The notes beneath the pieces were generated by a model, which was given only the letters and a program-made list of their open reading frames with translations, did no database searches and was not told where the DNA came from. Below, one piece after another: positions 2,943 to 8,400 of a stretch of 64,000 nucleotides of DNA (its first letter is position 1; each line of letters begins with the position of its first letter). A program made the translations under genes and the position numbers. This DNA comes from a virus (Duplodnaviria; Caudoviricetes): positions 64,001 to 128,000 of the IMG/VR virus record IMGVR_UViG_3300028797_000100; one strand, written 5' to 3'.

Positions 2943-3839
2943 ATGGCACGTATTAAGAAAACTGCTGAGACAGAGGCAGGTAAAACAACACTGTCAGCAA
3001 CCGGAAAGAAGAACTCTTATGATGTAACAATGTGGTTTATTCAGCCACTCTTGGGTTCAGCTCCTTCTGACCCTAACATCTATAAAACCTTTATTGCGTC
3101 AAAGGCTCCTGATGCTCCTACCAGGGAAGAGGAACTTATGACGACAACGGTTGAAAACGTTGCTTCAAGAGGTACAAACGTTTTCCTCAGAAGAAGCAAA
3201 ACCGGTAATCCCACAATCGCTCAGCACGCTCTCAAGGGCTTCTTAAAAGAAAGAGGTACTCAGGAGAACAGAGTTATTGATGGTATATCGATTACCAATC
3301 ATAAGACAAAGATTGTTGGTAACGTTGTTATCAAGCCGACATTCATCGATCTTAACATCCCAGAGGAATTAATCAGAGATACAACTGAAGAGACCTTCAA
3401 GAAAGAAGGATTTGGTTATAGCTCTGCTATTAGATTCCCTGCAGAGCCTGGCAGCAGATTCAGAAGAATCATGCTCCCAACATGTGATCGTCCCCTTCAG
3501 GCAGAAACTCCTCAGGGAAAGATAACATCAATTGCATCTAGTGAGATTGCACCTGCAGGCACATCTATCAATTTCCAGATGGAAGTAGATCAGCTGGCTC
3601 CAACTAAGAAGGATCCTGGTCAGATTGATGAGAGATTAATATCACTCTTTATGACAGGACACCGTCATGGCACAGGTCAGTGGAGAGGCTCTGGAGAATA
3701 TGGAGCTTTCGTTACTGAAGTACGTGATGAAGAAGGAAAGCTCATTTATGAGAACACCACTGAAGTTCTCGGTTGTAATTCCGATGACGCAGACTTCTAT
3801 CAGAAGCTCTGCGACTATATCGATGACAATTGCCTCTAA
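2943..3839 (+). CDS. Stand-alone Cas7/RAMP-like RNA-binding protein
   Basis: RAMP-like layout: N-terminal strand ending PLLGS, helix motif AQHALKGFLKE, thumb-like CDRPLQAETPQG..SIASSEIAPAGTSINF, and a C-terminal glycine-rich loop GTGQWRGSGEYGAF. RBS AAAGGAGG. No other cas genes in the window. Confidence 0.75.
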   Translation: MARIKKTAETEAGKTTLSATGKKNSYDVTMWFIQPLLGSAPSDPNIYKTFIASKAPDAPTREEELMTTTVENVASRGTNVFLRRSKTGNPTIAQHALKGFLKERGTQENRVIDGISITNHKTKIVGNVVIKPTFIDLNIPEELIRDTTEETFKKEGFGYSSAIRFPAEPGSRFRRIMLPTCDRPLQAETPQGKITSIASSEIAPAGTSINFQMEVDQLAPTKKDPGQIDERLISLFMTGHRHGTGQWRGSGEYGAFVTEVRDEEGKLIYENTTEVLGCNSDDADFYQKLCDYIDDNCL

Positions 3840-3845
3840 TAATAT

Positions 3846-3880
3846 GGGCGGCCCAGTGCCGCCCTTTACTTTAATTTTTT
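3846..3880 (+). terminator. Intrinsic terminator/hairpin after the Cas7-like gene
   Basis: GGGCGGC-CCAGT-GCCGCCC followed by TTTACTTTAATTTTTT. Confidence 0.7.
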
Positions 3881-3898
3881 GATAGGAGGTAATTGAAG

Positions 3899-4366
3899 AT
3901 GAAAGATGATAGTAAATTTGGTATAGAATTCACTACCAAGGCAAATGAGAGTTTAGAAACAGCTATAGATATACTCTCAAATTTATCACAGTCCGCTATA
4001 ATGGATTTAAGAGATGAGAACCCCAGGTTCAATAAGAACGTTGAGGAACTCACTCAATTAATTTCCGGCAGTCCGGACAAGTTATGGGCACAACATCCGG
4101 AGTATTCATTCATCACATGTTCGAAGAATGGTGACATCAAGTTATCACCTAATGCGAATTGTGAGATAAGATACAATGACAATGTACCATTCTTGCATTA
4201 TCTGAGATCCCGCAAACCTGATGTGTTAGGAGCAATCATAATACTTCAGTGTTTTGTTGAATGCCCCGGCTCTTTAAGTGAATATACTGTTCACTATAAA
4301 GATGGTAATCCAACAAATTTAAAGTTTGCCAATCTTGGATGGGCAAGAAAGTACGTCGGAAGATAA
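3899..4366 (+). CDS. Hypothetical protein between the Cas7-like gene and the pentamer array
   Basis: ORF of about 155 aa, RBS ATAGGAGG, ATG at 3899. No recognisable motif. Confidence 0.75.
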   Translation: MKDDSKFGIEFTTKANESLETAIDILSNLSQSAIMDLRDENPRFNKNVEELTQLISGSPDKLWAQHPEYSFITCSKNGDIKLSPNANCEIRYNDNVPFLHYLRSRKPDVLGAIIILQCFVECPGSLSEYTVHYKDGNPTNLKFANLGWARKYVGR

Positions 4367-4427
4367 GCTCTCGTGGAGCTCTAAACCACGCGTTGTCTCC
4401 AACTTATAAAGTTGATGTGAGACATAA

Positions 4428-5450
4428 AGTTTAGTTTTGGTTTTGTCTGGTGAAGTTCAGGTAAGGTGGAGTCGTGTAAGATGCCGATTCGTGGCGGTCT
4501 TGTTTGGTTCTATGTGATTTAGGCTAGTGAGGGTTTCGTGATCTGTTACTTTGGATATTCTGTGAGGGTGCGGTGCGGTTACGTCGTGTCCGGTAGGGTT
4601 TGTTCCTGTTTCGTTTTGTGCTGGTGACGCGGGGAGATGTTTGGAAGTGTGACGTAGCGGTTTTGCATTATACCGAAGACGCAGTTATGAATATTAATGT
4701 GTAGGCATAGTTCTAGTAGGTCATGTAATGTGTAATAACGCTGAGGCAGTGTCTTGCAGGGGCCGGTCAGGTAAGGTAGCGTATCACAGTGTACTGGTGT
4801 AGTTTTGTGTGCTGGGATCTGGAATTGTGCTGGTTATGTATCGTGAAATGGAGCTGGGTTCTTTTAGGTTGCGTCATGGTCCGGCATCGTGCGGTGCGGA
4901 AGAGTACTGCGCAGTTTTGTGTGGTTGCGGTGGTGTTATCTCCGGTATGACGATGTTTGGTCTGGCCGGGTGGCGGTACAGCATTGTATTGTACGGGTCA
5001 GTGGTGGGCTGTGCCGAGCTGTGTAGGTTTGGTAAGGCTCGGATCGGCATGATGTCGTCATGGTACTGTATGGTTAGGTTTCAGCATTGTTTTGGTGCAG
5101 CACAGTACGGTGAGATGTAGTTTCGTCTAGGTTGAGTGAGGGATGGATGTGTAATGGCTCGTTGAGTATCGGTGCAGCTAGGTAACGTGTTGAACTGATG
5201 CGTATTGTTTAGTACGGGTTGGGCTAGGTCAGGATCAGAGAGGTCAGGTTAGGTTCTGGTGATGTGTCGTTTGGTATGGCAATGTTTCGCATAGCAACGG
5301 TGTTGCTCGGTACAGTACCGTCACATAGTGCCTGGTTCAGGTAAGGCGAAGTTGGGCTTTGAAGTGCGAAGTGTTGGTGGAGCCTGGTAGGGTCTAATCA
5401 TGTCAAGTGATGGTAGGGGCCGGTCAGGTAACATAGCGATCGCAGTGTAC
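4428..5450 (+). repeat. Non-coding degenerate pentamer array (NGY-NN / GGY-NN), about 200 units in about 25 blocks; candidate guide-RNA array
   Basis: Abrupt switch to G+T-rich sequence with G followed by T/C every 5 nt, e.g. 5026 GGTTT GGTAA GGCTC GGATC GGCAT GATGT CGTCA T. Bounded by a 5' hairpin (4394-4424) and a terminator (5457-5495). Confidence 0.85.
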
Positions 5451-5456
5451 CAAAAG

Positions 5457-5495
5457 AATATTCCGGGGCATAATGCCCCGGATATTTTTTTTTTA
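5457..5495. terminator. Terminator between the array and the convergent RNAP gene
   Basis: TCCGGGGCA-TAA-TGCCCCGGA followed by a long T run. Confidence 0.85.
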
Positions 5496-8400
5496 TTTTC
5501 CTTCCCAAATTTGACGCATCTTACGTTTAAGATTTACTAAAACCTTATTACCAGATGCGGTAACTACAAGTGAAGGTATCATACGTTTGAGGATACCTGA
5601 GTTAGATACAAATAATGATATCTCTTCATTAGGATCTGATTCAGCATATGGTTCAAGTCCTTCTGGAATAACTTCCGAAAGAACCTGTTTTGATGCACCA
5701 TACATTGCAAGCTTATCACCAACTGATGCTTCGTCTTCATGTTCGATGTATATTTCTATGAGTACATCACATGTTCTACCCTTGATAGTTGTACCCTTCA
5801 AAGGAGCAGTTGGTAATGTATATAATGTATCCAGTTTGTATACTGAATCTGTTTTGTCATACTTATCAAGAATCTTCTTTCTCTGTATATTCTTCTTGAA
5901 GTAATCATCGAGAAGTTTATACAATGATGGAGAAAGTTTATCCATGCTCTTGGTAGTGTACATTCTTACATCAAATACTCTACCAGGATTCTTTGCACGT
6001 ACAACTCTCTTCGCATTATCCAAAACAGAATTACTTTCTTTATTCTGGAATGCCTTAAGGAAGTTATCAACAGATTTATCACCAGTATCACCAATACCGA
6101 ATACGATTAATGGATCACCGATTTCAACTTCATCTCCAACCTTAACAACTGACTCGATATCATCAAGTGCTTCGATTGGAACTGATTGCATCATTGAAAG
6201 TGATGTACCAAGTTTCTTGGACATCTTATGTGTTATCAATCCAGCGTCTTCATATGTTGAGTAGATGTTTGCGAATACACATTTAGCCAGAGGACCAACG
6301 TTCATTCTTACAACACCATCGATACCCTTAGTGAAGAACTTTTCATGATATGCGATAACATCACCCTTCTTGAATTTGTCATTTACTTCAAGATTAGTAA
6401 CGAGATGGTTATCAACATAGAAACCAGAACCGGAGTTGAATGATGGTTTATGTGCAAGGTTTACAGCCTTCTTCTTTCCTGACTTGAATTGAAGAATCAT
6501 GTAATCTTCATTCTTGTCTATAACAGAACCATCCTCGGGAGCAACATAAGAGAATTCTTCAGTAAGGTTTGAAGAAACAATCTCATCAACACCATTTGAA
6601 ATCAATACAGGCTCGGCTGCAATAGTAGGAACGATATGAGATGTCTGAGATGTTGCAATAGCAGTTCTGATGGCATCGTCACGTGTAACTGTACCAGGAG
6701 TAAGCAACTCGGAGAACGATGCTAACTGAAGATCATTGAAGTCTGTTTCAGGACCAGCTGTGGATGTATAACCACGAACTGATTCTATCTTAGGATCTGC
6801 AACCAACTGACGATTGATACCTACATTCGCATTGTTTGGAGATGACAGAGCCATCTTACCAATCATTGTGTTTTCATAGTTACGTTTGTCAACTGTATAT
6901 GCACGATCATCGTTAACTCCTTTGAATCCTTTCTTGGTGATGTTTTCACGCATATGAAGTTCTACCATAGGATTCAATGCAGACATAGGTTCAACATTAG
7001 GAACTGCCAAGAGTTCATTGATAACTTCATTTGGATTGAATGCTATTGCATTTCCTCTAGCCTTAGAACCAACGTTGTTGTTGTATTTCGATATAGCAAA
7101 TGCCAATCTATAATGTATGATAGCAGGAATGATCTCAGATGATCTGATACGATATAAAGAAGCATTATTCTCTGATGTATGGTTATTGTCTGCCAACAGA
7201 TTTGATGCATATATCAGCATACCAGCAATGTCGTTTGGTATATGATAATGGTCACATACATCCGCTGTTATAGGATCAACAAAGAACTTGTAATATGTGA
7301 TGAATGTCGTAAGCTGTGAATACTGTTTGAAGAATAGATTATTGTATATATCAACATAGATGGAGTTCGAATTCATTATAGGAGTTTCAAACTCTGCAAA
7401 GTTGTAGTTCTTTGTGTTGATACGATAGAAACCATTGAACAGTAATTGGTTTGGAACATTGTTCTCAATTGCGAGGATCTTGTCCTTGAAAGGTAATGTG
7501 AAGAAATGACTATCGTCGAAGTTTGATGCCACGAACTTATACTGAACACCACTCTTCTTGATGAGGGATGATATACCTTCCCATGCCGCAATAGTAACAC
7601 CAAGTGGTACAAGTACACCGATCTTGATTTGTGTATACATTGCAAGCTTACCAGGTTTCTGTTTCTTGTATTCCTGTTGGAGTTCAGGTGGTAAACTCTC
7701 AAGAATCAAATCAGTAATAGTATGACCATCACGTGTTAAACCTGTTTCAGTATTAACAACGATTGGTACTTGGTCATGCATACCACAACAGAACTCATTC
7801 TGTTGTACAGTAACAAAACCAAACTTTTTCTGACACTGAACTCTGTTGAAGTTTATCTCAAGAGCATTGGCTCTGTTGTTGAAATAAACCCACTTGCGAG
7901 CATACTCATCATACTCGATCGTAGATACAAAACGTGAGTTAGTATTAGATGAGTTACCAACACGGACAAACTTATTCTTACCAGTCTCAGCATCAGTCAA
8001 CTTATTGATTATCTTGATAACCATTGACAAGTCTACCAATGAACGAGTATCATATCTTTGACATGTAATCTTGTTATAGTTACTGGTAAGCATAACAGTT
8101 TTCTTGTTTATCTTTAATATCGGAATAGGGAAGTCTTGTTTACCGATATTATACCAGATACCGTTGTTGTAGAATCTACCATTGACGATCTTTGGTATAC
8201 GGATATTAATGATAGACTGACGGTCATTGCTCTTGTTCTTCAATGTAACCTTCCAGTTATTTACCAAACTCAATGGAGTTGACGCATCAGTTACATCTAC
8301 ATTTGTAACATAGAATCCGTCTGGTAATTTGGAGAAGTTCATGAATGTTGCAACGATATCTCTATCCAACAACTTATCTTCATATTCCTTAGCTATACGA

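Follow-up and report, generated by a model that had tools for sequence, protein, structure and literature searches.

Single-base register shifts partition a phage pentamer array into probable guides of a staggered VIPR system

Introduction

VIPR, first described in 2026, is a CRISPR-related, phage-borne system for the targeting of DNA (10.64898/2026.04.26.720920, 10.64898/2026.04.26.720927). Its parts are a lone ancestral RAMP protein (Vipr), an accessory vap gene and vrRNAs composed of GGY/NN pentamers, in which NN pairs with DNA and every third target base, usually at a codon wobble position, is skipped (10.64898/2026.04.26.720920). Each Vipr protomer grips a single pentamer at the G–Y anchor and displays the two variable bases (10.64898/2026.04.26.720920, 10.64898/2026.04.26.720927); according to the structural preprint, G1 and G2 are read by one protomer and Y3 by the next. 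Alternative repeat types include YNNNG, which is NGYNN in another register (10.64898/2026.04.26.720920).

Amongst the VIPR architectures listed are staggered arrays, for which we draw on the legend to fig. S18 of the discovery preprint: consecutive vrRNAs are offset by one nucleotide (a ‘1-nt overlap’), with the end of one marking the start of the next, and the legend speaks of ‘processed vrRNAs’ (10.64898/2026.04.26.720920). Small-RNA sequencing confirmed only the ribozyme-interspersed and single-vrRNA architectures, not the staggered one (10.64898/2026.04.26.720920).

Here we describe a pentamer array in a 163.7-kb record of a tailed phage (IMGVR_UViG_3300028797_000100). The window analysed is the 64,000-nucleotide stretch from 64001 to 128000 of that record, and coordinates refer to the window unless stated otherwise; blocks and guides are named by their first position. 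The locus resembles the published systems in several respects. The RAMP gene stands alone, with neither a CRISPR array nor other cas genes, its neighbours being an HNH_3-like gene, which by its position is a candidate vap, and the gene for RNA polymerase beta. The pentamers carry a G–Y anchor and two hypervariable bases (the YNNNG type), guides 4878 and 4929 follow the NNx rule with wobble positions skipped on one ORF, and 26 +1 junctions divide the array into contiguous blocks with no Rfam ribozyme match between them. The locus has no repeat–spacer array and no multi-subunit effector with Cas5 and a large subunit, the features that define class 1 CRISPR-Cas; a single RAMP gene is present. By its cassette, array grammar and target rule, we place the feature as the staggered-array form of VIPR.

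Organisation of the cassette

The vipr-like gene (2943–3839, + strand) encodes a lone Cas7-like RAMP protein of 298 amino acids. A consensus scan finds a weak sigma-70-like promoter candidate upstream of it (2757–2786, +; 10 of 12 matches), and such sites are no more numerous in the region than in shuffled sequences. The vap candidate follows (3893–4366, +), encoding a 157-aa NUMOD4/HNH_3-like protein that matches the HNH endonuclease family phrog_959 (E 1e-6). In four loci the RAMP gene is followed immediately by a gene for a protein of 142–157 amino acids, and the vap candidate is kept beside the RAMP gene in the related loci L007, L008 and L009. The putative catalytic histidine of its HNH_3-like ‘HYKDGN’ motif is not kept in L008 or L009, and we regard nuclease activity of the protein as doubtful. 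Between the two genes lies a GC-rich hairpin with a weak T tract (3846–3864), which may act as an attenuator or as an RNA-processing element within the operon.

A structured 5′ leader (4367–4438, +) begins one nucleotide past the stop codon of the 157-aa gene. It contains a hairpin, P1 (4372–4376 paired with 4386–4390), and a stem, P2 (4394–4399 paired with 4419–4424), that encloses a variable hairpin. The same leader is found before all three arrays of the genome and before the arrays of L007, L008 and L009; P1 and the inner hairpin both show compensatory changes. The sole IMG/VR match to the leader pattern (L001) lies in GC-rich coding DNA and was rejected as chance.

The array itself (4439–5450, +) consists, by HMM phasing with simulation controls, of about 26 blocks of 5n+1 nucleotides. 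It closes with a conserved 3′-terminal module (5412–5450, +) that shares 97% identity with the end of the L007 array. A blastn self-comparison reveals an internal copy of this module (4758–4794, +; 89% identical to 5415–5450) at the end of block 4745: the array may have arisen by fusion of two earlier arrays, or the module may serve a separate function. A terminator scan places an intrinsic terminator with a 9-bp GC-rich stem and a T run at 5462–5495 (+). This terminator is common to the array and the convergent RNA polymerase beta gene and is conserved in L007 and L008. Given the order vipr, vap, leader, array and terminator, transcription of the array most likely proceeds on the + strand and yields a single long precursor.

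Register shifts in the pentamer tract

The tract from 4428 to 5450 is non-coding and rich in G and T (36 and 33%, respectively). Its autocorrelation peaks at lags of 5 and 10 and then splits, to 15/16, 20/21 and 26; the drift of these peaks and a spectral scan agree on a mean period of about 5.1–5.15, slightly above 5. The sequence-only reading of this DNA had reported that the pentamer register slips repeatedly by +1, and had proposed segmentation with a cyclic HMM as the check. We used a five-state cyclic HMM in which insertions and deletions had the same prior. The model yields the unit NGYNN, with G at position 2 in 88% of units, Y at position 3 in 91%, and positions 4 and 5 near background. 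Between 4428 and 5450 it counts 170 pentamer, 26 hexamer and 3 tetramer spacings between successive G–Y cores; from 4439 to 5412, there are thus 26 slips of +1 against 3 of −1. The same-direction slips are therefore real under a model symmetric in sign, and their spacing is regular.

As regards the positions of the borders, the HMM places 22 of the 25 proposed block starts exactly where the sequence-only reading had them, moves 4522, 4567 and 5217 to 4537, 4572 and 5222, and adds a start at 5083; the three that moved are ambiguous in register by 5 or 15 nt. The count of 21 intervals of 5n+1 out of 24 is recovered from the original list of starts, and the decoding of the variable bases of block 5258–5298 (GA GT TT AT AA TT AT AA) is correct.

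The same pattern holds when six arrays, three from this genome and three from relatives, are pooled. Hexamer spacings outnumber tetramer spacings by 221 to 20, and 195 of the 215 intervals between +1 slips are of length 5n+1, most commonly 31, 36 or 41 nt, with a coefficient of variation (CV) of 0.34. After a slip, the base preceding the core is G in 88% of cases. When arrays were simulated with insertions placed at random and passed through the same pipeline, the corresponding values were a CV of 0.89 and a G frequency of 38%, and the earlier argument that random microsatellite decay would look different thus holds.

The slips are also marked in sequence. It had been noticed that the unit after a slip is nearly always a perfect GGT or GGC, and G does occupy position 1 in 92% of the first units of blocks, compared with 25–36% at every other unit index. 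The full GGY is confined to the first unit of a block; internal units are NGYNN. The extra base is T in 101 cases, C in 70, A in 46 and G in only 4 (n = 221), in other words ‘not G’, so that a junction reads H|GGY and a block has the form GGYNN(NGYNN)n-1 plus one non-G base. Successive block lengths are not negatively correlated, and permuted arrays accumulate no more phase error than the observed ones; the slips are therefore discrete events marked in sequence, not the rounding of a non-integer period. No sign of global RNA structure emerged from the folding of array segments, whose z-scores were inconsistent (+0.6, −3.7 and −0.65), and an Rfam scan of 4200–5600 at E ≤ 10 returned noise only, with no ribozyme or known RNA.

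Evolution by blocks

For comparison with a related array we used L007, the RAMP protein of which is 75% identical. Local homology between the two arrays coincides with a single block in one case (4878) and with precisely two neighbouring blocks in the other (5299 and 5340), and the high-scoring segments end within about 3 nt of the junctions. Blocks 5299 and 5340 are placed elsewhere in the L007 array, so the order of blocks has changed. The comparison of related phages that the sequence-only reading had called for thus finds homology that starts and stops at block borders.

Within the shared blocks, substitutions affect 6 of 107 NN positions and 22 of 111 at positions 1 and 3; relative to the latter, the variable dinucleotides are conserved about 3.5 times better. 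In block 4878 the NN bases are identical to those of the orthologous L007 block in spite of five substitutions at positions 1 and 3. As judged from these alignments, the blocks are the units of both conservation and reshuffling between related phages.

Targets of individual guides

Targets were decoded by the published NNx rule, in which two bases are read and one is skipped. The block of 10 units at 4878–4928 (+) matches an IMG/VR contig (G001, 4120–4148, − strand) at 20 of 20 positions, its single exact match in IMG/VR. In the metagenome collection there are seven exact matches, five of them in homologues of the same small ORF. The match is kept in the diverged homologues L049 and L052 (about 50% amino acid identity), and the L052 site, when checked against G001, differs at skipped wobble bases only. 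The next block, with nine units (4929–4974, +), matches at 16 of 18 positions on the opposite strand (G001, 4087–4112, +), only 8 nt from the 4878 site. A gapped search against shuffled controls had been suggested at the outset; within the 330-nt ORF, at most 1 in 20,000 shuffled guides does as well as guide 4929 (p about 5e-5).

For both guides the skipped bases are codon position 3 of the ORF L010:3952-4274. Every unit of each block is matched and the match stops at the junction. On the target the two guides lie tail-to-tail, with the 3′ end of one about 33 bp from the 5′ end of the next, and because of this distance they would act as separate particles.

The target ORF, on IMG/VR contig IMGVR_UViG_3300029251_000270, encodes a 106-aa glycine-rich protein that is probably a membrane protein. 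Three metagenome contigs carry identical copies of the ORF that preserve a TAG within its frame, which suggests that the target phage decodes this codon as an amino acid. The neighbouring genes encode a UvrD helicase, an SbcC-like ATPase, an ABC-3C CTD6 protein and a family A DNA polymerase. Guide 4878 has no match amongst the genome contigs searched, and hence gives no clue to the host.

Convincing targets were found for only these two of the roughly 26 guides. Guide 4460 matches at 12 of 14 positions within 110 nt of the 4878 target, but with correction for multiple testing p is only about 0.1. For guides 4572 and 4832 and for guide 155590 (array C, genome coordinates), exact NNx scans returned no matches. 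Weighing database redundancy and GC bias, we judged the matches of two further guides to be at chance level: for guide 4975, the single IMG/VR match, in an Acetobacter prophage, lies off the wobble register without support from neighbouring guides, and five others fall in unrelated GC-rich bacteria; for guide 5299 (eight units), 29 matches reduce to about 10 unrelated gene clusters (RecA, primase–polymerase, methyltransferase and others). Matches of guides to their own genome under the NNx rule are not significant: p ≤ 0.05 is reached by 5 of 60 guides, against an expectation of 3 (0–1 at other skip lengths). The five self-matching guides come from arrays A and C and none from array 4439–5450; two of them match at 14 of 14 positions.

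Other arrays and related cassettes

A spectral scan of the 163.7-kb record detects three tracts with a period of 5.10–5.15, all G-rich on the + strand, at about 17.2–18.0 kb, 68.4–69.45 kb (the array under study) and 155.3–156.5 kb of the genome. The other two, array A (genome 17143–18070; L002:7143-8070) and array C (genome 155270–156510; L003:7270-8510), lie outside the window and have the same structured leader, without an adjacent RAMP gene. Array A is preceded by the gene for an HNH endonuclease and by a 166-aa ORF; array C lies behind a terminator and an AT-rich upstream region of its own. A search for paralogues amongst the ORFs near the three arrays found none, and the record, which is estimated to be 61% complete, contains one RAMP match only. 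One vipr gene appears to serve three dispersed arrays.

The arrangement of RAMP gene, gene for about 150 amino acids, leader, array of 0.9–2.3 kb and terminator recurs in L007, L008 and L009, in differing genomic contexts. It is absent from the same site in the related phage L005/L006 (RNA polymerase beta 68% identical). There, at L005:12654-12800 and L006:14254-14400, a short intergenic region with terminators occupies the place where the 2.6-kb vipr–vap–array cassette would sit. Since it is absent from this site, the cassette behaves as an accessory module and is probably mobile.

More distantly, RAMP homologues of human-gut phages (about 30% identity) have 5n+1 staggered arrays of N-G-[C/A]-N-N units directly downstream. 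In the human faecal phages MT835520.1 and MT835513.1 the arrays (L045:5575-6130 and L046:5668-5950) follow shorter RAMP homologues, and in many of their blocks GCAA or GCTA and one further base stand before the next GG. These endings, which are not seen in array 4439–5450, may be a signal in the terminal unit. The RAMP homologues found are unnamed metagenomic proteins, and neither blastn nor megablast gave a match amongst the INPHARED phages.

Proposed mechanism and alternatives

We consider it probable that 4439–5450 is a VIPR guide region of some 26 independent guides, the precursor of which is separated into guide ribonucleoproteins (RNPs) that bind genes of a competing phage. The array is a head-to-tail tiling of about 26 independent guides with 5–11 units each, every one opening with a full GGY, and the +1 base resets the register so that one filament cannot run on into the next guide. 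A closing N–G anchor would be needed after the last NN of each guide, and the junction H-G|G-Y would then bring together the final anchor of a guide and the initial anchor of its successor. A block can also be parsed as GYNN-(NGYNN)n-1-NG, which puts an anchor on both sides of every NN and gives a length of 5n+1 with no ‘extra’ base, the GG of a junction being then one closing and one opening anchor G; alternatively, the junction G could be shared by both guides, as the preprint’s ‘1-nt overlap’. In both cases the break in register would keep a filament from reading through. With regard to the proposal of the sequence-only reading that the extra base marks the boundary, the borders are real, but that base need not be special. 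Separation into RNPs might proceed by cleavage or by independent assembly of filaments, and the RNPs would then bind their target genes.

The original suggestion that the slips separate individual guides, most with 14–22 variable nucleotides, gains support from the target matches, the block-wise homology and the conservation of the grammar across distant RAMP homologues, and the blocks accordingly behave in sequence comparisons as separate guides. More tentatively, and in our estimation with the balance against it, the borders could be set by the single base rather than by a repeat, tail or ribozyme, the leader being the sole handle for assembly or nucleation, with filaments that themselves measure and release the guides because the register break at H|GG ends one filament and leaves the junction exposed to cleavage.

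Separate guides could also function on an RNA that is never cut, the kilobase transcript forming a string of mini-filaments with the +1 base as a hinge. Each array has one structured leader and neither a per-guide tail nor a ribozyme, as such a string would have it, and staggered arrays are not amongst the architectures confirmed by small-RNA sequencing (10.64898/2026.04.26.720920). Nevertheless, a linker of one base could not span the roughly 33 bp between guides 4878 and 4929, should both be bound on one DNA molecule, and the legend to fig. S18, as far as it goes, refers to ‘processed vrRNAs’; we think uncut RNA unlikely. Highly improbable is a continuous RNP or nucleic-acid structure with a physical period of about 5.14 nt and no discrete units, in which the +1 steps would be integer rounding. 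The spectral peak at 5.10–5.15 in all arrays is what it would produce, but rounding accounts neither for the sequence specificity of the slips (G1 in 92% of first units against about 30% elsewhere, and G almost excluded from the extra base) nor for block lengths without negative autocorrelation and a phase error no smaller than that of permutations, and targets and homology both respect the block borders.

Two further explanations retain hardly any credibility. The view that the slips were left behind by mutation in a decaying pentanucleotide microsatellite is favoured by the existence of imperfect units and by nothing more; insertions are in 11:1 excess, the simulation control refutes random placement (interval CV 0.34 against 0.89), and the junction motif and architecture are conserved across RAMP homologues of only 30% identity. 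The tract has a repeated short G-containing motif with spacers of 2–3 nt and in this formally resembles TRAP sites, as if it were a sponge or decoy RNA titrating an RNA-binding protein in the manner of TRAP or CsrB rather than a set of DNA guides. A sponge, however, predicts neither that the variable dinucleotides should be the best-conserved positions of orthologous blocks nor that they should spell a conserved phage gene in codon register, and a Cas7-like gene adjoins the tract. Sponges of the TRAP/CsrA type, along with G-quadruplex and DNA-level readings, were dropped given the RAMP gene, the codon-register targets and the conservation of NN.

Target matches and block-wise evolution provide sequence-level support for independent guides in an architecture that the VIPR discovery preprint lists and that awaited experimental confirmation there. 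The precise grammar (GGY in the first anchor alone, an extra base that is almost never G, lengths of 5n+1) permits automatic guide calling in kilobase arrays. Correct calling is a precondition for predicting what such phages silence, and tools built on very compact multi-guide arrays would depend on it too. If borders are indeed set by single bases and filaments measure and release each guide themselves, no multi-guide array known would be more compact, with an overhead of about 1 nt per guide, and its biogenesis would follow a route unlike those of both CRISPR and SUSP1-type VIPR.

Comparison with known systems

The closest described system is staggered VIPR, which we compare on the basis of the legend to fig. 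S18. The two share a lone RAMP with a small accessory gene, pentamers with two variable bases, the one-nucleotide offset, and an NNx code on wobble positions, carried by one phage and aimed at another; the identity of the grammar is drawn from the figure legend. Compared with what the legend gives, the arrays described here are 0.8–2.3 kb long with 24–68 +1 junctions each, one vipr gene appears to serve three dispersed arrays, the RAMP protein has about 300 amino acids, and each array has a conserved structured 5′ leader.

Type II VIPR, known from Escherichia phage SUSP1 and a Pseudomonas fulva prophage, likewise has G-G-Y anchors, NN display and one skipped base, and there, as here, several guides converge on one competing element. 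The SUSP1 vrRNAs are units of about 100 nt with 9–16 GGYNN repeats, each with an invariant 3′ pseudoknot tail, whereas the guides of the present array have 5–11 NGYNN units, of which only the first has a full GGY anchor, lack individual tails and are separated by a single base. The conserved structured element stands 5′ of the whole array rather than as a 3′ tail on each guide. Characterised Viprs are of about 20 kDa; the RAMP protein here has 298 amino acids.

The differences from class 1 CRISPR-Cas systems (type III with Csm3, type VII with Cas7) are greater. The locus has no CRISPR repeats and no genes for Cas6, Cas10, Cas5 or adaptation, and in the window Tandem Repeats Finder reports no tandem array longer than 57 nt and no period above 28. 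Class 1 guides have a 6-nt period and pair contiguously; the period here is 5 nt and the code is gapped. Finally, the border of a class 1 guide is a repeat of 25–40 nt, whereas in the array described here it is one base.
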